Source of the DNA: Rhodocyclaceae bacterium
Lineage (GTDB): Bacteria; Pseudomonadota; Gammaproteobacteria; Burkholderiales; Rhodocyclaceae
Reading direction: 5' to 3'
Length of the DNA stretch: 64,000 nt
NCBI GenBank assembly: GCA_030824275.1
Contig: JAVBXY010000016.1
Span: forward strand, 115,807 to 179,806
Both the position numbers and the translations under genes were made by a program. The stretch's first letter is position 1; every line of letters begins with the position of its first letter. A model generated the notes under the pieces. That model was not told the DNA's origin, did not search any database, and saw nothing but the letters and a program-made list of their open reading frames with translations. Shown piece after piece: positions 4,836 through 34,609 of this stretch.

Positions 4836-5756
4836 ATGCCCATTCGTCCCATGCATATATCGCGGATCGACCTCAACCTCTTCGTGGTCTTCGACACCGT
4901 CTTCACCGAAGGCGGCATCACGGCGGCCAGCCACAAGCTGAACCTGTCGCAGCCGGCCGTCAGCCATGCCCTGGCGCGGCTGCGCACCCTGCTCGGCGAC
5001 TCGCTGTTCGAACGCCACGGCCGCAGCATGGTGCCGACGCCGCTGGCCCGCTCCATCGCCGGCCAGGTGCGCGCCGCCCTGCGCAACATGGAAGGTACGC
5101 TGCACGAAGCCATGCGCTTCGATCCGGCCACCAGCGACCGCCGCTTCACCCTGGCCTTCCGCGACGTGCTGGAACTGATCCTGGTGCCGCCGCTGATGAA
5201 GGCCATGAGCCAACGCGCTCCCGGCGTCGAGATCGCCGCCGCGCGCATGGATCGCCGTAGCCTGGAGTCCGACTTATTCACCGGCATCGTCGATATCGGC
5301 ATCGACGTATTGCTGCCGGTTTCGCAGGAAATCCGTCGCGAGCAGGTGCTGGCCGAACCCATGGTGGTGGTGGCGCGCAAGGGACACCCCGCCCTCGCCG
5401 GGAAGTTCGACCTCAAGGCCTACCTGGCCCAGGAACACATCCAGATTTCATCCCGCCGGCGCGGCCCGGGCCTGGAAGACATGGAACTCGCCCGCATCGG
5501 CGTCTCGCGCCATATCCGCCTGCGCTGCCAGCACTACGGCACCGCCTGCCGCACGGTGAGCATGACCGACCTGCTGGCGACCATGCCGGCGCGCTACGCC
5601 AAAGTGGTGAACAAACCCTATGGCAACCAGATCGTGCCGCTGCCGCTGAAGGGCACGCAACTGGAGCTTTACCTCTACTGGCATGAAAACGCCGAGCGCG
5701 ACCCGGCCGGGGTCTGGCTGCGGGAGATGCTCAAGGACGTGATCGGGCGCTCCTGA
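4836..5756 (+). CDS. LysR-family transcriptional regulator
   Basis: N-terminal wHTH (IDLNLFVVFDTVFTEGGITAASHKLNLSQPAVSHALARLR) plus a LysR substrate-binding domain of typical length. Confidence 0.9.
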   Translation: MPIRPMHISRIDLNLFVVFDTVFTEGGITAASHKLNLSQPAVSHALARLRTLLGDSLFERHGRSMVPTPLARSIAGQVRAALRNMEGTLHEAMRFDPATSDRRFTLAFRDVLELILVPPLMKAMSQRAPGVEIAAARMDRRSLESDLFTGIVDIGIDVLLPVSQEIRREQVLAEPMVVVARKGHPALAGKFDLKAYLAQEHIQISSRRRGPGLEDMELARIGVSRHIRLRCQHYGTACRTVSMTDLLATMPARYAKVVNKPYGNQIVPLPLKGTQLELYLYWHENAERDPAGVWLREMLKDVIGRS

Positions 5757-6701
5757 TCAGGGCGCCGCGTGTGGCTGGCACAGCAAGGCGCTGCACACAT
5801 CGCGCACCACTGCGGCTGTAGCGAAATGCAAATCCTTGTACGGGTTGTACTCGACGATTTCCAGCGCCAGTAAATGCGGATCGCCGCTCAAAGCGCCGAA
5901 GGCACGGGTGACCTCGTCCCGCGTCAGTCCGTCGGCCGCCGGCGTGCCGACGCCAGCGGCCTCCCGTGGATCGAAGGCATCCAGATCGATGCTGATGCCG
6001 TAGCCGGCCGTCGCCGCACCGACATGCTGCCGCGCCTCTTCCAGCACCGCATCCATGCCTCGTCGATGCACCTCGTCCATAAAATAGACCCGAACGCCGA
6101 GCGTGCGCAGCAGCGCCGCCTCGCTCCACTCGAAACTGCGCACGCCGATCAGGCAGACGTCCTCGGGGTGCAGCTTGGGGCCGACGCCGCCGATCTCCGT
6201 CAGTTGCGGCTCGCCACGTCCGAGCAGGCAAGCCAGCGGCATGCCGTGCAGGTTGTGGCTGGGACTGGTGCGCGGCGTATGGCTGTCCATGTGCGCATCC
6301 ACCCAGATCAGACCCAGACGGGCATCCGCCCCAACTGTGGATTGGAGATGGGCATGTACGCCGGACCAGGTGCCGATGGCGCAGGAATGGTCACCGCCGA
6401 TGACCAGCGGAAAATCCCCGGCAGCCAGGTGGCCGGCGACGGCCTGCGCCACCCGCCGCGCGACATCGCGCACCACGAGCAGCGGCTCGACGCCAGACGA
6501 AAAGAGCGGATGAATGATGTCGTCCCAATGAAAACTGCCGCCGCAATTCTCCAGGTCGCGAAGTATCTCCATAGTGCGCAGAACCTCGGGGCCGTCCTGG
6601 CATTCCCTGTCGCCGGCGCCATAGCCGCTGGCAACGCCGACTACCGCCGTCTTGCGCGGGAGCATGTGCAGATATCCGGGTTCGTGCAGTGCATCGGTCA
6701 T
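5757..6701 (-). CDS. arginase/agmatinase/formiminoglutamase-family ureohydrolase
   Basis: Mn-binding motifs GGDHS, VDAHMDSH and SIDLDAFDP. Confidence 0.8.
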   Translation of the reverse strand: MTDALHEPGYLHMLPRKTAVVGVASGYGAGDRECQDGPEVLRTMEILRDLENCGGSFHWDDIIHPLFSSGVEPLLVVRDVARRVAQAVAGHLAAGDFPLVIGGDHSCAIGTWSGVHAHLQSTVGADARLGLIWVDAHMDSHTPRTSPSHNLHGMPLACLLGRGEPQLTEIGGVGPKLHPEDVCLIGVRSFEWSEAALLRTLGVRVYFMDEVHRRGMDAVLEEARQHVGAATAGYGISIDLDAFDPREAAGVGTPAADGLTRDEVTRAFGALSGDPHLLALEIVEYNPYKDLHFATAAVVRDVCSALLCQPHAAP

Positions 6702-6840
6702 ATCCTAAACGGACCATGTTTCACGACAGTGTCGGGACAATGCATGCCGTCAATCCGGCCATGCGGGCGACAAGGGCAGGGAAAGGCTATCCGCAATTGC
6801 GCAGCAAGCCAAGCCGGCAAGGGATTTGATAGGCTTCGGT

Positions 6841-30493: not shown

Positions 30494-30532
30494 GGCAATG
30501 CCGGCGGCGCCACAGCGAAGGAAACAGCAAGC

Positions 30533-30874
30533 GTGAGTGGATTTGAAAACTTCGCCGCCGAAGCCGCCAGCATCGAACTAGAACTCCAGCGCAAGGGCGT
30601 CGCCCTCGGCATCGACTGGGAAGACGAAGTCCAGACCCGCGACCTCGCCCGCGCCGCCCTGGCCTGCAAACCCGGCAAGGCCGGCTGCAACTTCGACGAT
30701 CCCATCGAGGCCGCGCGCTTCGCACTCTTCGGCCTTGCCCACCTGATGCTGCACGTCATGCAGGAAAGTGCCGGCGAACACATCCACACCCACGGCGGCC
30801 CGGTCTGGAAAGCCTTCGCCCGCGCCCTCTGGGCCGAACACGACATACGGGAAAGCGGGAGAGACACCGAATGA
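30533..30874 (+). CDS. hypothetical protein (113 aa)
   Basis: GTG start. Coding-like frame translationally coupled (ATGA) to the next gene. No recognisable domain. Confidence 0.5.
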   Translation: MSGFENFAAEAASIELELQRKGVALGIDWEDEVQTRDLARAALACKPGKAGCNFDDPIEAARFALFGLAHLMLHVMQESAGEHIHTHGGPVWKAFARALWAEHDIRESGRDTE

Positions 30875-31221
30875 TCTACTACGCCATCAAGATCACCCTC
30901 TCGGCGCTGCTGATCGTCGCCATCTCGGAAATCGCCAAACGCTCCACCGGCTTCGCGGCGCTGCTCGCCTCACTGCCGCTCACCTCGCTGCTGGCCTTCA
31001 TCTGGCTGCACGTCGAAGACACCCCCAGCGAAAAGATCGCCGAGCTGTCCAGCCAGGTGTTCTGGCTGGTGCTGCCCTCGCTGGTCCTCTTCCTGCTGCT
31101 GCCAATACTGCTGCGCCAGGGCCTCAACTTCTGGCTCAGCCTGAGCCTCTCCGCCGCCGCCACCGCCGGCTGCTACGCCGCCATGCTGCCTCTGCTGCGA
31201 CGCATGGGCGTGGCGATCTGA
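30871..31221 (+). CDS. small membrane protein (DUF3147-like)
   Basis: MIYYAIKITLSALLIVAISEIAKRS and four hydrophobic helices. Family assignment is from memory. Confidence 0.6.
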   Translation: MIYYAIKITLSALLIVAISEIAKRSTGFAALLASLPLTSLLAFIWLHVEDTPSEKIAELSSQVFWLVLPSLVLFLLLPILLRQGLNFWLSLSLSAAATAGCYAAMLPLLRRMGVAI

Positions 31222-31264
31222 AAAGTCGGCGCTGATGAAGCCACTGCGCTACAAGGCGGTCGAG
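31222..31264 (+). repeat. left 43-nt inverted repeat (dispersed-motif head plus 27-nt extension)
   Basis: AAAGTCGGCGCTGATGAAGCCACTGCGCTACAAGGCGGTCGAG. Matches the reverse complement of 33882-33924 at 42/43 positions. The motif tail GATGGCGACACGGCGAA follows at 31290-31306. Confidence 0.9.
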
Positions 31265-31312
31265 CAAAAGACGCTCTCCTCGCCGTAGCGGATGGCGACA
31301 CGGCGAAACGAA

Positions 31313-31714
31313 TTAAGGCTGCGTCAGCGACCAGTGGGTTTGCACGATGCGCCAGCCCACCGCATCGCGCCGATAGACCTCCGTGCAGTTCCACAACATG
31401 CGCGGCCCATCGCCATTCCATGACGCGAAATTGAAAGACAGCGCCGCCATCTCGCCGGCCTCCTGCACCACCGGACTCGACAGCTCGAAATGCTCGGCCC
31501 GGATCGTCCCCCGCAAGCCCTCGTAATACGCTGTCAAGGCTGGCAGCCCGTCGATGCGGCGAGGAATGAAGGGATCGAAATACACCACATCCTGCGCCGA
31601 GATTTCCAGAAAGCCGCCCGGGTCGCCATCCAGCCAGCGGCGTAACGCCGCCCGTTCGAGGTGGATGACTTCGTGTTCGGTGGAGTCTGCGGTACCGTCG
31701 ATACAGGCTGTCAT
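31313..31714 (-). CDS. NTF2-like (SnoaL/DUF4440-type) protein
   Basis: 133 aa from the ATG at 31714. Typical small alpha+beta cone pattern (..FLEISAQDVVYFDPF.., ..WNCTEVYRRDAVGWRIVQTHWS). Confidence 0.6.
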   Translation of the reverse strand: MTACIDGTADSTEHEVIHLERAALRRWLDGDPGGFLEISAQDVVYFDPFIPRRIDGLPALTAYYEGLRGTIRAEHFELSSPVVQEAGEMAALSFNFASWNGDGPRMLWNCTEVYRRDAVGWRIVQTHWSLTQP

Positions 31715-31947
31715 ATCAAGTTCTTTTCTGAACATTCTGTTATCAGCACATGCTAGCGGGCTATTGCCATGCCGTGGCAATAGGCGTTAAATCCAGTCCG
31801 TAGCGTCTGGCGGACAAAAAGCGGCGGGGGCACGTTGCTGGAGAAGCACAAATTTTGGATGCACTAAATGATGTCGCCACAGGATTTATTCCAATGATTT
31901 TTTAATCAGTTCCGCCCGATTTAGCCGTCCTAATAATAGGAATCCAT

Positions 31948-32718
31948 ATGGCCACTTGTTTCGTGATCCAACCATTTGACTCCGGGAAGTTCGATAAGCG
32001 CTTTCAGGATATTTACAAGCCCGCAATCGAATCTGCTGGTCTTGAGGCATATCGAGTCGACCACGACCCCGGCGTCCTAGTCCCCATCGATTCGATCGAA
32101 AAGGGCATTCGGCTTGCCGCCGTATGTTTGGCAGACATCACCGCCGACAATCCCAACGTTTGGTACGAGCTTGGTTATGCTTTTGCATCAGGTCGTCCGG
32201 TTGTCATGGTTTGCTCGGAGGAACGCACCGGCAAGAAGTACCCGTTTGACATTCAGCATAGAAGCATTATCCCGTATCTAGCAGACTCTCCGAGCGATTT
32301 CGACAAGTTGCGAGATAGCCTCACCGCCAAGCTCTCGGCAATCATCAAACAGGATGCTGTACTCGATAAGATCGCCGAAACAGATCCGGTATCGCCTGTT
32401 CATGGGCTTTCGCAGCCAGAAATCTTGGTGCTTGCGGTGCTCGCCGGTGAAGCCTACTTGCCAGACCAAGCCACCGGAGTGAGCGGTGCCAAGCGAAGTG
32501 CTGAGCGTGCCGGTATCACGAGTATGGGTTTCAACCTTGCAGTACGTCGTCTTCTACAGAAGAAACTGATTCGGGAGCAGGAGATATGGAATGAACGAGA
32601 TGGCGAAGGCTATCCGGGCCTCGCGGTCGCCGACGCTGGATGGCAGTGGATCGATGCGAATGACGGGCAGTTCATGTTGAACCGCCCGGAGAAGAAGAAA
32701 GAAGATGACTCGTGGTAG
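31948..32718 (+). CDS. nucleoside 2-deoxyribosyltransferase-like (TIR/NDT-fold) domain fused to a C-terminal winged-helix domain
   Basis: AGGAA RBS. N-terminus FVIQPFDSGKF..IYKPAIE and CLADITADNPNVWYELGYAFASGRPVVMV match the NDT-like Rossmannoid pattern with the conserved Glu. The C-terminus (LSQPEILVLAVL..MGFNLAVRRLLQKKLI) looks wHTH. Lower-GC codon usage. Confidence 0.6.
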   Translation: MATCFVIQPFDSGKFDKRFQDIYKPAIESAGLEAYRVDHDPGVLVPIDSIEKGIRLAAVCLADITADNPNVWYELGYAFASGRPVVMVCSEERTGKKYPFDIQHRSIIPYLADSPSDFDKLRDSLTAKLSAIIKQDAVLDKIAETDPVSPVHGLSQPEILVLAVLAGEAYLPDQATGVSGAKRSAERAGITSMGFNLAVRRLLQKKLIREQEIWNERDGEGYPGLAVADAGWQWIDANDGQFMLNRPEKKKEDDSW

Positions 32719-32748
32719 CCACGAGGCCAATCCCATCATTCCACCGGA

Positions 32749-32772
32749 CCTTGCGCATAACGCTGCGCAAGG
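32749..32772 (+). promoter_or_regulatory. hairpin CCTTGCGC-N8-GCGCAAGG between the two island genes
   Basis: Perfect 8-bp stem. The 3' arm contains the only SD-like AAGG upstream of the GTG at 32776. Confidence 0.35.
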
Positions 32773-32775
32773 CCT

Positions 32776-33129
32776 GTGAAATTGAACGTTGAAGGTCGCG
32801 TGCGCTGGCTTGAACTTTTGCTCGCAGCCATCTTTGGAGCGCTATTCACGGCCTTTCAGTTTCTGTCTGGTCAGTGGTGCGAGCCAACACTCGTTCGTCC
32901 CGTCGCCGGAATTTTCGTCGTCCTAACAGCTGTGCTGTACTTGTACTTCGTTGACGACGAGCGGCGGCCGTTGGTCGGGGTGTGGCACCGCATGCTTTTT
33001 GGGGCAGCGGCAGGTTTTGTTGTGGCCGCTATCTCGAATGGACCTTCCGAGCTATACGCTTTGCTCACGCTTGTAGGCGCCATGCTCGGGTATGTTGGCT
33101 TCCGTTGGCTCAAGCATGTCCCAATCTGA
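32776..33129 (+). CDS. small 4-TM membrane protein, function unknown
   Basis: Four hydrophobic helices in 117 aa. Start is the GTG at 32776 or 32800. Same strand as, and 57 nt after, the NDT-like gene. Confidence 0.5.
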   Translation: MKLNVEGRVRWLELLLAAIFGALFTAFQFLSGQWCEPTLVRPVAGIFVVLTAVLYLYFVDDERRPLVGVWHRMLFGAAAGFVVAAISNGPSELYALLTLVGAMLGYVGFRWLKHVPI

Positions 33130-33199
33130 CCCTCAACGCATCCGTCAACTCGGACGCGCCGTGACGAAGCCGCGTCTCGCCAGTTATATCAGACGTCCT

Positions 33200-33210
33200 C
33201 CCCCCCCCCC
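33200..33210 (+). repeat. C11 homopolymer tract
   Basis: Eleven consecutive C read directly from the sequence. Intergenic, 41 nt upstream of the higB -35 box. Confidence 0.95.
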
Positions 33211-33250
33211 ACGGGAGTGCCTGTGTCTTCAGGGCGGGTAGTAGTAACGC

Positions 33251-33279
33251 TTGACGTTATGTCCGCTACGCGTTAATCT
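33251..33279 (+). promoter_or_regulatory. candidate higBA promoter
   Basis: TTGACG-N17-TAATCT. The -10 ends 6 nt before the higB ATG. Flanked by the inverted hexamers TAACGC (33245-33250) and GCGTTA (33270-33275). Confidence 0.5.
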
Positions 33280-33285
33280 TTTCCG

Positions 33286-33567
33286 ATGGCGATTCGGAGC
33301 TTCAAGTGCAAGGACACACAGGCGCTCTTCCTCGGCAAGAGGGTGCGTCGCTGGGTTAATGTTGAGCGGCCCGCACTACGCAAGCTTGAACAACTTGACT
33401 GGTCTGCTGTCCTGGAAGACCTGCGTGTGCCGCCCGGCAATCAATTGGAAGCATTGAAGGGGAATCGCAAGGGACAACATAGCATTCGCATCAACGATCA
33501 GTGGCGAGTGTGCTTTGTTTGGACCGTGGAAGGCCCGAAAAATGTCGAGATTGTGGATTACCACTGA
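33286..33567 (+). CDS. higB: HigB-type (plasmid maintenance system killer) toxin
   Basis: 93 aa. IRSFKCKDTQALF..LEALKGNRKGQHSIRINDQWRVCF is the HigB/killer-protein pattern. Confidence 0.9.
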   Translation: MAIRSFKCKDTQALFLGKRVRRWVNVERPALRKLEQLDWSAVLEDLRVPPGNQLEALKGNRKGQHSIRINDQWRVCFVWTVEGPKNVEIVDYH

Positions 33568-33578
33568 AGGAGCTAATC

Positions 33579-33878
33579 ATGCGCACGGTTCCCCCTGTTT
33601 CTCCCGGCGAAATGCTGGAAGAGGAATTCCTGAAACCACTCGGTCTGACCAAGTACCGCCTGGCCAAGGATATCGGTGTGCCCCCCCAGAGAATCGGGGA
33701 TATCGTGGCAGGCAAGCGGGCCATTACGGCCGACACCGATTTGCGGCTGTGCCGATACTTTGGGCTCAGCGATGGCTGGTGGCTTCGAGGGCAGGCTAAC
33801 TACGACACAGCAGTCGCTCGCGAAATCATGGGCGAAGCGCTTTCGCGTATTTCCAAGTGTCGCCTTCTTACTGCCTGA
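33579..33878 (+). CDS. higA: HigA-type antitoxin (XRE HTH)
   Basis: GAAGGAG RBS. PVSPGEMLEEEFLKPLGLTKYRLAKDIGVPPQRIGDIVAGKRAITADTDLRLCRYFG. Confidence 0.9.
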   Translation: MRTVPPVSPGEMLEEEFLKPLGLTKYRLAKDIGVPPQRIGDIVAGKRAITADTDLRLCRYFGLSDGWWLRGQANYDTAVAREIMGEALSRISKCRLLTA

Positions 33879-33881
33879 GTC

Positions 33882-33924
33882 CTCGACCGCCTTGTAGCGC
33901 AGTAGCTTCATCAGCGCCGACTTT
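33882..33924 (-). repeat. right 43-nt inverted repeat
   Basis: Reverse complement is AAAGTCGGCGCTGATGAAGCTACTGCGCTACAAGGCGGTCGAG. Starts 4 nt after the higA stop. Confidence 0.9.
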
Positions 33925-33941
33925 CTGACGGACATCCGCCC

Positions 33942-34340
33942 ATGGACGAACGACAACTCCAGCACTATGCCGACAAGCTCGCCTATGAGATCGACGCCTG
34001 GGATTTGAAGGTTCTGCTCGACGAGAAGCAGCCGGTAATCGTGATCGATGCCCGCTCGCCGCAGGCCTACGCGACGGAACACATTCCCGGTGCGATCTCC
34101 TTGCCCCATCGCACGATGGATGCGGCAACGACGGCTGGCCTCGACAAGTTGGTGATGGTCATCACCTACTGCGACGGCATCGGCTGTAACGCTTCCACCA
34201 AGGGGGCGCTGGCTATGAGCAAGCTCGGCTTTCGGGTCAAGGAGCTGATGGGCGGGCTGGACTGGTGGAAGCGGGACGGCCATCCCACCGAGGGCAATGC
34301 CGCTTCACCGGCCAGTGGTGCCGCCTGCGGCTGCGACTGA
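33942..34340 (+). CDS. rhodanese-domain protein
   Basis: IDARSPQAYATEHIPGAISLP and the active-site Cys region ITYCDGIGCNAS. Confidence 0.8.
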   Translation: MDERQLQHYADKLAYEIDAWDLKVLLDEKQPVIVIDARSPQAYATEHIPGAISLPHRTMDAATTAGLDKLVMVITYCDGIGCNASTKGALAMSKLGFRVKELMGGLDWWKRDGHPTEGNAASPASGAACGCD

Positions 34341-34351
34341 ATGCCATAGCA

Positions 34352-34591
34352 TCACGCATCGCTGCGCAGCAGCGCCATCAGATCATCGGTCCGCCACTGG
34401 ATGTCGGCTTTACCGCGAGCCGCCTCGAAGCGGTCCGGCTTGCGACTGGGGCAGGCACCGAGTTCTTTGATCACCACTTCGCCGTCGTCATTGATGGCAA
34501 ATTCGACCAAGCAACCCGGCTTCAATTTCAGCGCATCGCGGATCGGCTTGGGAATGGTGACCCGGCCTCTGCTGGTAAGCGTCGACGCCAT
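34352..34591 (-). CDS. AbrB/SpoVT-fold antitoxin-like protein (VapB-like), no cognate toxin gene
   Basis: TSRGRVTIPKPIRDALKLKPG swapped-hairpin motif. No PIN or other toxin ORF lies downstream. Confidence 0.7.
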   Translation of the reverse strand: MASTLTSRGRVTIPKPIRDALKLKPGCLVEFAINDDGEVVIKELGACPSRKPDRFEAARGKADIQWRTDDLMALLRSDA

Positions 34592-34609
34592 GACGTCCCT
34601 CCTGTCAAA

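Follow-up and report, generated by a model that had tools for sequence, protein, structure and literature searches.

The locus

We analyzed a 64,000-nucleotide (nt) stretch of DNA from a Rhodocyclaceae bacterium (GenBank assembly GCA_030824275.1, contig JAVBXY010000016.1, positions 115,807 to 179,806 of the forward strand), referred to below as the window, and in particular a gene near its middle that encodes a 256-amino-acid (aa) protein, here called protein A. A first-pass annotation of this DNA had proposed that A and the 117-aa product of the next gene on the same strand, protein B, form a two-gene conflict module beside a higBA toxin-antitoxin pair. The two open reading frames (ORFs) and the motifs FVIQPF, ADITADNPNVWYELGYAF, and GRPVVMV in A are there as claimed, and all three motifs lie within the best-conserved part of the family to which A belongs. 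The module is not: A and B are inherited separately and stand side by side in this organism only. Protein A is probably a stand-alone, single-gene conflict protein that unites effector and sensor in one polypeptide and putatively degrades NAD+ or nucleotides, a reading suggested by sequence, structural models, and analogy; its family is large, patchily distributed, and uncharacterized. The features of A and B, in window coordinates, are as follows (NDT, nucleoside 2-deoxyribosyltransferase).

31948-32718, + strand: protein A, an ORF of 256 aa with an NDT-like domain, a winged helix, and an acidic tail
31948-32352, + strand: N-domain of A (residues 1-135), an NDT/DNPH1/TIR-class Rossmannoid; predicted N-glycosidase
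32167-32169, + strand: Glu74 codon of A, inside the DNPNVWYELG motif
32404-32667, + strand: C-domain of A (residues 153-240), a winged helix-turn-helix (wHTH); presumed recognition or regulatory domain
32668-32715, + strand: C-terminal tail of A (residues 241-256), disordered, basic and then acidic, ending in EDDSW
32749-32772, + strand: GC-rich stem-loop (CCUUGCGCA / UGCGCAAGG) in the spacer between A and B, without a T-tract
32776-33129, + strand: protein B, an ORF of 117 aa; small membrane protein with four hydrophobic segments

A and B do not co-occur in other organisms

No B homolog was detected by tblastn in 80 loci that carry A, and A was found in none of seven loci with B homologs, which is the result that the first-pass annotation had itself named as speaking against its two-gene module. 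The pair is refuted because of this lack of co-occurrence, the unequal sizes of the two families, and homology that stops at the edges of the ORFs. The B family comprises 29 homolog clusters, mostly of 109 aa, and is ∼90-fold smaller than the A family; in the seven loci examined, B homologs follow pqqCDE or stand among unrelated small genes ahead of a methyltransferase. DNA homology to relatives covers 31936-32721 in the case of A and 32788-33149 in that of B and is absent in between, and the unshared spacer contains the stem-loop listed above, which is strongly folded as RNA (ΔG, −26.9 kcal/mol; z-score, −3.98; 0 of 200 shuffles as stable). Of the nearest relatives of A, the one at 91% identity is followed by a gene for an IS110 transposase and the one at 84% by a gene for a Shedu/PDC-M68-like nuclease. 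A single other contig has both genes, L081 from read archive SRR14559659 (loci are designated by L and a number); its A is 100% identical, and it apparently comes from the same organism.

A has no other fixed partner either. Neighboring genes were called by the rule GC3 > GC1 > GC2, validated on the window; length alone or GC1 > GC2 picked antisense ORFs in GC-rich DNA. All-versus-all clustering of neighboring ORFs yielded no conserved neighbor of A, the large clusters being antisense ORFs that overlap A. Pfam and PADLOC scans of the two genes closest to A on either side (148 upstream and 140 downstream) showed no Pfam family in more than five members, and a downstream same-strand ORF with at least two transmembrane segments within ∼350 nt was present at only three of the 80 A loci (L002, L064, and L020). 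The neighborhood survey that had been suggested for the pair thus turned up neither B near A homologs nor a recurrent partner in the two nearest genes per side.

Protein B has four hydrophobic segments by hydropathy, in agreement with the four transmembrane helices described for it earlier. It likely starts at the GTG at 32800, preceded by a GAAGG Shine-Dalgarno sequence, which gives 109 aa; the homologs are 109 aa long and begin with MRW. No match to B above threshold was obtained in Pfam, PADLOC, or PHROG. B is a member of a rare, unrelated family of small membrane proteins and a chance downstream neighbor of A.

Protein A has a predicted N-glycosidase domain, a winged helix, and an acidic tail

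The N-terminal domain of A had been described as an NDT/TIR-like Rossmannoid with a conserved Glu, and this assignment holds. The only PADLOC match of A is to the effector domain of the CBASS "Effector TIR" model PDLC00733 (E value, 7.7e-9; residues 21-136). A PDB sequence search returned weak NDT and DNPH1 matches in which E74 is aligned to Glu98 of L. leichmannii NDT, the catalytic residue of that enzyme; a PDB profile search started from the family alignment returned weak matches to the same two proteins and nothing further, and NCBIfam returned none. An AlphaFold2 (AF2) model built from 21 family members starts with a beta-alpha Rossmannoid (residues 1-110), which is followed by a long helix (115-144) and a low-confidence linker; three helices with a beta-hairpin (156-237) come next, and the tail is disordered. 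Structure prediction, proposed in the first-pass annotation as a check on the N-domain, gave an NDT/DNPH1/BcmB-like fold: the best Foldseek matches in the PDB were the CMP N-glycosidase BcmB, a cyanobacterial NDT, and DNPH1 (target TM, 0.65 to 0.69), followed by the TIR domains of SPARTA, SARM1, and RPP1. Structures in BFVD that matched A were phage CMP/hmCMP hydrolases, NDTs, and PadR-like regulators. Among 75 distinct family members, whose N-domains have a median identity of 67% to the window copy, at least 97% conservation is seen at E74, Q8-P9-F10, K17-R18, Y35-R36-V37-D38, N68, N70-V71-W72, R93, P99-F100-D101, and H104. From its fold, its motif, and the conservation of E74 and basic residues, the N-domain looks like an active enzyme, as predicted from sequence and model.

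The C-terminal domain, noted earlier as winged-helix-like, is indeed of that kind. Its secondary structure in the AF2 model consists of three helices (156-168, 178-187, and 192-204) and a beta-hairpin (208-227), and Foldseek matched it to the PadR-family winged helix 5zi8 at a root-mean-square deviation of 2.8 and also to viral wHTH proteins. This domain evolves faster than the N-domain, with a median identity of 43% and a minimum of 22% to the window copy among the same 75 members.

The tail that follows has a predicted local distance difference test (pLDDT) score below 50 in the AF2 model and is predicted to be disordered. Among the 75 members, 67 end in Phe, 51 in IPF, and 60 in a sequence that fits an acidic stretch followed by [ILV][PL]F at the C terminus. 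Many members, from several phyla, terminate in exactly DDDIPF and others in [DE][DE]xIPF; carriers of the tail include L017, L018, L023, L029, L045, L046, L048 to L050, L057, L063, and L080. In a published account, DDDIPF is the conserved C-terminal hexapeptide of SSB (single-stranded DNA-binding protein), the docking site for its many partner proteins (PMC5872125). A disordered acidic tail ending in DDDIPF is a property of the family, and the window copy displays it weakly.

A large, patchy, and modular family

The A family comprises 2,520 clusters (E value up to 1e-3) of near-constant length, ∼256 aa. It was found in at least 585 of about 185,000 species representatives, patchily and at 45 to 85% identity, in many phyla; carriers belong to the Beta-, Gamma-, and Alphaproteobacteria, Acidobacteriota, Nitrospirales, Bacteroidota, Planctomycetota, Verrucomicrobiota, Myxococcota, Spirochaetia, and others. 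Cultured carriers include Pseudaquabacterium/Aquincola sp. S2 (WP_173125092.1), Limnobacter sp. MED105, Polaromonas sp. YR568, Stenotrophomonas nitritireducens DSM 12575 (tail, DDDIPF), and isolates of Duganella or Paraburkholderia.

With the C-domain as query, an exhaustive phmmer search of 1.84 billion representatives returned 157 relatives, mostly A-like proteins or fragments. In two of them, P0261 (293 aa) and P0284 (288 aa), the wHTH and IPF tail of the family stand behind a Pfam-significant TIR_2 domain that also matches ThsB_TIR weakly. Because these two proteins have the A-type wHTH and tail behind TIR_2, we conclude that NDT-like and TIR effector domains, judged by sequence, are interchangeable on one sensor scaffold. 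Plasmid and phage records contained no matches to the C-domain of A. Another relative, P0161 (315 aa), is a chimera whose parts are the zinc-binding domain of an IS91-type transposase and the C-terminal half of an A-family protein; it is probably a pseudogene or fusion generated by insertion.

The N-domain also occurs alone, at 30 to 36% identity over residues 4-138 and with the motif NPNV[FW]YELG, in plasmid proteins in which it is fused to tetratricopeptide repeats (TPR) and which are annotated "TRAFs-binding domain-containing." Further N-domain homologs are found in proteins of temperate Staphylococcus and Streptococcus phages, among them members of phrog_3634 and three other PHROGs of unknown function. 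One of these, SA13_16 of Staphylococcus phage SA13 (L133, 4001-4651; 216 aa, phrog_3634, motif NPNVFYELG), is the sole opposite-strand gene within the SA13 replication module, a moron-like placement. The SA13_16 gene is present in many S. aureus Phietavirus-type prophages. The TIR-bearing sisters P0261 and P0284 have the tail, and the phage N-domain homolog is without it. A conserved N-domain, a diversifying C-domain, and domain swaps make up a modularity that, at the sequence level, appears typical of immune proteins.

In a Vicinamibacterales metagenome-assembled genome (CBDHFM01), A is part of a 1.23-kb unit present four times at 99.4% identity or more (L062, L065, L066, and L067; ∼5587-6816 in each). 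The unit consists of 414 nt of upstream sequence, A, and 84 nt of downstream sequence and includes no downstream partner. Its upstream part holds a small ORF of ∼99 to 119 aa without a Pfam match. Three of the four copies share more than 3 kb of additional downstream sequence; a mobile unit or a duplication arising in assembly is possible.

Genomic surroundings of A

L088 (contig SRR31358132_69) is a compact defense island in which A lies between a complete DRT4 (E value, 1e-199) and a Shedu/PDC-M68-like nuclease and which also includes a RES toxin with its partner (RES-Xre), an Mrr-like nuclease, an LmuB-like SMC ATPase, and a TIR-WD40 protein. Further ORFs there, such as those of 109, 82, and 195 aa, are unassigned. 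In five loci (L044, L056, L059, L068, and L074) A is directly upstream of a DUF1156/HmaB methylase gene, and in two of these, L056 and L074, Schlafen/AlbA_2 plus HATPase_c_4 and AAA_15/AAA_21/DUF3696 ATPase modules stand alongside it. At L073, a large gene homologous to a gene of the DUF1156/HmaB operon is found upstream, not downstream, of A. The DUF1156/HmaB-methylase operon is an apparent insertion hot spot that holds A in one clade (L044, L056, L059, L068, L073, and L074).

Limnobacter has a split integrase and a TerB_N/BrxC_BrxD/DEAD trio beside A. Other neighbors are integrases, resolvases, a Tn3 transposase, TrwB/TrwC, IS110, DarT/DarG, AbiP2, a type IV restriction endonuclease, and OLD/Gabija-like ATPases. 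In Aquincola sp. S2, an unrelated TIR_2 gene lies 46 nt upstream of A; a tandem array of A paralogs was considered for this locus and rejected, the upstream TIR_2 protein and the downstream proteins of 247 and 226 aa all lacking the domains and the tail of A. Of the original conflict-module idea, the conflict-type, horizontally acquired setting survives for A, and the two-gene composition does not.

Proposed role of A and its alternatives

We favor, with moderate confidence, the view that A is a single-gene effector-plus-sensor protein of biological conflict. On this model, the NDT/TIR-class N-glycosidase would use Glu74 to cut NAD+ or a (deoxy)nucleotide at its glycosidic bond and would normally be kept inactive. 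The faster-evolving winged helix and the flexible acidic tail would detect a trigger, either a nucleic acid or a protein of the invader. Trigger binding would activate the enzyme, probably through oligomerization of the kind seen in NDT dimers, filaments of retron-Eco1, and Swarozyc-portal rings, and the activated protein would deplete an essential nucleotide pool, stopping phage replication or the infected cell.

A more specific version assigns the tail a guard or decoy function: the A family would be an undescribed single-gene immune sensor that baits invaders by mimicking the SSB tip (DDDIPF). Phage replication, recombination, or anti-host proteins that dock onto SSB tails would attach to the decoy, perhaps with the wHTH taking part, and this binding would release or oligomerize the interchangeable NDT-like or TIR glycosidase, with collapse of the NAD+ or nucleotide pool as the outcome. 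We found no literature that links mimicry of the SSB C terminus to defense systems, and we regard this version as speculative and rather unlikely.

Several observations weigh against the view of A as a conflict protein. Beyond the CBASS TIR-effector domain, the family has no matching family or defense-system model in Pfam, NCBIfam, or PADLOC; of the profile searches recommended in the first-pass annotation, PADLOC gave the TIR-effector domain for A, Pfam Nuc_deoxyrib_tr (PF05014) stayed below threshold (24.6 bits against a gathering cutoff of 28.8, over residues 52-94 only), and B had no match above threshold. The AF2 model is of moderate confidence (pLDDT, 69; predicted TM-score, 0.48). Conservation of the N-domain, together with the constant length of 256 aa, is unusually high for an immune gene. 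Full-length A is absent from 50,697 phage and 72,556 plasmid records, and blastn in distant mode found no homolog in E. coli. Many A loci are flanked by housekeeping genes (such as RNR, MreB, IMPDH, and RuvB) and form a one-gene islet, as in the window, and the recurrence of A in defense islands and near mobile-element genes is a qualitative observation from individual loci. The window copy ends in EDDSW and its 91%-identity relative in EAEPW, both degenerate tails. The substrate, the trigger, and the oligomeric state of A are all things that we infer.

Some of these observations suit a different role, in which A is not an immune protein and serves as an accessory enzyme of DNA or nucleotide metabolism, for example one that sanitizes modified or damaged nucleotides, belongs to the SSB interactome through its tail, and contacts DNA through its wHTH. 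The closest structural relatives, DNPH1, NDT, and BcmB, are housekeeping or biosynthetic N-glycosidases, the N-domain and the overall length are strongly conserved, the tail is identical to the SSB C terminus used by genome-maintenance proteins, and many A loci lie beside housekeeping genes. However, the gene is spread patchily over many phyla (at least 585 of about 185,000 species) without a constant genomic location or partner, recurs in defense islands and mobile elements, exchanges its effector domain for TIR, is multicopy in one metagenome-assembled genome, and occupies a low-GC islet in the window. We consider such a housekeeping role unlikely.

A could also serve mobile elements, either as an anti-defense enzyme that destroys immune signaling nucleotides or NAD-derived signals or as an addiction toxin that stabilizes its islet. 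Temperate phages and plasmids do encode N-domain homologs; genes for integrases, transposases, and conjugation are near A in several loci; and the DrHyd/TIR/SLOG class has among its members nucleotide-processing enzymes that serve both sides of conflicts. On the other hand, none of the phage and plasmid records contains full-length A, no conserved antitoxin-like partner adjoins it, and it is embedded in host defense operons and islands. A role in the service of mobile elements is, in our judgment, quite improbable.

We consider it very unlikely that A belongs to the retron type II effectors, whether as an orphan remnant or in partnership with an unrecognized reverse transcriptase (RT) and msDNA elsewhere in the genome, and a retron link was rejected. 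One close relative, that of L088, does lie directly downstream of an RT gene, but this RT is the complete DRT4, which is described as a self-contained single-gene system (PMC12783706). A tblastn search with it gave only a weak match, at L048, among more than 90 loci and none in the window, and RVT_1 was not among the recurrent neighbor families of A. No retron noncoding RNA was detected by Rfam, either at gathering thresholds in 11 A loci or at E values up to 1 in the window at 30500-34600, the coverage of retrons in Rfam being limited. The retron-effector models in PADLOC did not match A, nor did the Ec86 effector chain in the PDB sequence search, and the strong purifying selection on A speaks against a decaying remnant.

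Pairings of TIR with two-transmembrane-segment proteins exist in known systems. The weakest explanation is the original pair, in which A would sense infection or make a signal and the four-helix B would disrupt the membrane, as in Thoeris, CBASS, or Pycsar: the two genes do share a strand, are 57 to 81 nt apart, lie in a low-GC islet beside higBA, and recur together in L081, but this co-occurrence is limited to one organism, close relatives of A have different downstream genes, the families differ ∼90-fold in size, homology ends at the ORF edges with a strong hairpin between them, and B relatives reside in unrelated settings, so that we judge the pair highly improbable.

There is, then, no new two-gene system of an NDT domain and a membrane effector here, and that claim should not be propagated. 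What remains of interest is a cross-phylum family that has the architecture of a retron effector without the retron, a TIR-bearing sister group, and, in most members, an SSB-tip tail. If A is immune, a compact single-gene system of NADase or nucleotidase type would be added, and baiting by an SSB tail would become a testable idea; if it is an accessory of genome maintenance, the SSB interactome would gain a member.

The islet and its flanking repeat

The surroundings of A and B in the window contain the following further features.

33286-33567, + strand: higB, toxin (Pfam HigB-like_toxin, PF05015; E value, 1.5e-15)
33579-33878, + strand: higA, antitoxin (HTH_3; TIGR02607 HigA, E value, 4.9e-28)
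31313-31780, − strand: SnoaL/DUF4440-like gene between the repeat arms (Pfam SnoaL_3, E value, 1.6e-7; GC content, 0.60); context only
31222-31308, + strand: full ∼87-nt hairpin repeat, of which the first 43 nt are the left arm of an inverted repeat
33882-33924, − strand: truncated copy of the repeat, the right arm, which starts 3 nt past the higA stop codon

Three elements of context had been cited in favor of a conflict locus, and each is confirmed. GC content is lower than in the flanks, the islet genes having 0.54 to 0.60 overall (A, 0.54; B, 0.57; higB, 0.54; higA, 0.59) and the flanking genes, pepN and others, 0.65 to 0.67. The adjacent toxin-antitoxin pair is higBA by Pfam PF05015 and TIGR02607, and it is an independent neighboring type II module. 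The flanking inverted repeats are 43 nt long and complementary at 42 of 43 positions (31222-31264 and 33882-33924); shuffled sequences gave no such match by chance, and the repeats enclose the SnoaL-like gene, A, B, and higBA. The region is probably a small, low-GC, horizontally acquired islet of independent single units, namely, the SnoaL-like gene, A, B, and higBA; our moderate confidence covers this statement jointly with the role proposed for A.

The arms are copies of a dispersed repeat. The full copy occupies the entire gap between a gene for a 116-aa membrane protein and the SnoaL-like gene, and the right copy is truncated at 43 to 48 nt. The ∼87-nt repeat is 90 to 98% identical on 38 metagenome contigs with unrelated flanks, folds as a single long imperfect hairpin (DNA ΔG, −20.5 kcal/mol; z-score, −2.35), and has no Rfam match. 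The genes on either side of it elsewhere are ordinary ones (MCP, GMP reductase, and PhoX), and none of the 38 contigs carries A, B, or higBA. Within L095 to L132, paired copies stand in direct orientation in L111 and in L117 and in inverted orientation, 3 kb apart, in L127, and one copy is nested in L123. Transposon ends and attC sites were both considered for the inverted repeat and rejected, since it is a dispersed hairpin repeat whose termini lack the attC RYYYAAC/GTTRRRY boxes. The 4-bp sequence CTGA is found directly outside both arms; a TGA stop codon often abuts the 5′ edge of the repeat elsewhere, and the flanking CTGA may just reflect this. Both arms are points at which a read-archive assembly from the same sample breaks, and a search for the empty site with the exact flanking proteins recovered only contigs of the same sample, broken at the repeat. 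We conclude that the ∼87-nt repeat is probably an intergenic element like repetitive extragenic palindromes or miniature inverted-repeat transposable elements and is not evidence that the islet is a transposon, and that recombination at such repeats could have helped to assemble the islet.

Three smaller observations concern the same region. A C homopolymer of ∼11 nt lies near 33199-33211 (GTCCTCCCCCCCCCCCACGGG), between B and higB and upstream of the higBA promoter region, and is possibly prone to slippage. A possible operator is the perfect 9-bp palindrome (CTATTGCCA-TGCCG-TGGCAATAG; 31762-31784) that lies upstream of A, in the divergent region, where the SnoaL-like gene has its 5′ end; other A loci do not keep it, because homology begins just 12 nt ahead of A. 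A gene for a 79-aa antitoxin-like protein of the MazE/AbrB/PrlF type (34352-34591, − strand) lies between a rhodanese gene and the gene for a 303-aa membrane protein, and no recognizable toxin gene adjoins it.

Comparison with known systems

The first-pass annotation did not recognize its pair as a named system, and neither PADLOC, NCBIfam, nor the literature has one that matches the A family. It had likened the pair to Thoeris, CBASS, and Pycsar as an NDT-type domain with a small membrane effector; with A and B unpaired, the comparison does not apply, and it falls because the A-B module is not borne out. The N-domain of A does match the effector domain of the TIR-type CBASS effectors (PDLC00733). 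In contrast to CBASS and Thoeris, however, no CD-NTase, SAVED/STING, ThsA, SIR2, or SLOG partner recurs near A: the SIR2, SLOG, and Macro families were present in fewer than 2 of 288 A neighbors and around A in the window not at all, and neither CD-NTase nor pyrimidine cyclase was among the recurrent neighbors or flanked A in the window.

Structurally, the best matches of A are the N-glycosidases of the NDT, DNPH1 (Rcl), and BcmB-MilB group (PF05014 superfamily; "DrHyd" in the terminology of the Aravind group), with E74 on the catalytic Glu and the motif xGxxxELGxA common to both. A differs from them in having Q8-P9 in place of Tyr before the Phe of the first strand, in its additional wHTH and tail, and in a genomic context that is related to mobility and defense and not to salvage or biosynthesis. 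Comparative genomics of TIR, DrHyd, and SLOG domains has described DrHyd domains as effectors of conflict systems that act as NADases or process nucleotides. The "TRAFs-binding" (NDT-like plus TPR) and phrog_3634 proteins have N-domains homologous to that of A; their C-terminal halves are TPR or helical, without the wHTH and the IPF tail. SSB shares with most members of the A family the same or nearly the same terminal hexapeptide at the end of a disordered acidic tail, but A is not an SSB and lacks an OB fold, the hexapeptide is altered in the window copy (EDDSW), and binding of partners by the tail is putative.

In domain order, the retron type II effectors are identical to A. Those of Retron-Eco1/Ec86, Sen2, and Eco3/Ec73 are NDT-like plus wHTH proteins that assemble via NDT contacts and, once triggered, deplete adenine derivatives; as in A, the NDT-like domain, with its catalytic Glu, comes first and the wHTH last. 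Unlike them, A is a solo gene with an SSB-like tail and without an adjoining retron RT or msr-msd, and we found no literature describing an NDT-wHTH defense gene that lacks an RT. Swarozyc, as presented in the accessible part of its preprint (bioRxiv 10.64898/2026.05.01.722283), is a single-gene DUF4062 TIR-like NADase in which an auxiliary HTH or winged domain binds the phage portal and assembles the active complex. Like Swarozyc as described there, A is one polypeptide with an N-terminal TIR/NDT-class glycosidase, predicted in A, that has a conserved Glu and with a C-terminal HTH or winged domain. A has no Pfam DUF4062 match (E value up to 1), its motif DNPNVWYELGxA is of the NDT/DNPH1 type, and an SSB-like tail is not among the features of Swarozyc in that part of the preprint. 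The better analogy for A is thus the single polypeptide that would act as both effector and sensor, not the producer of a signal that is read by a membrane effector.

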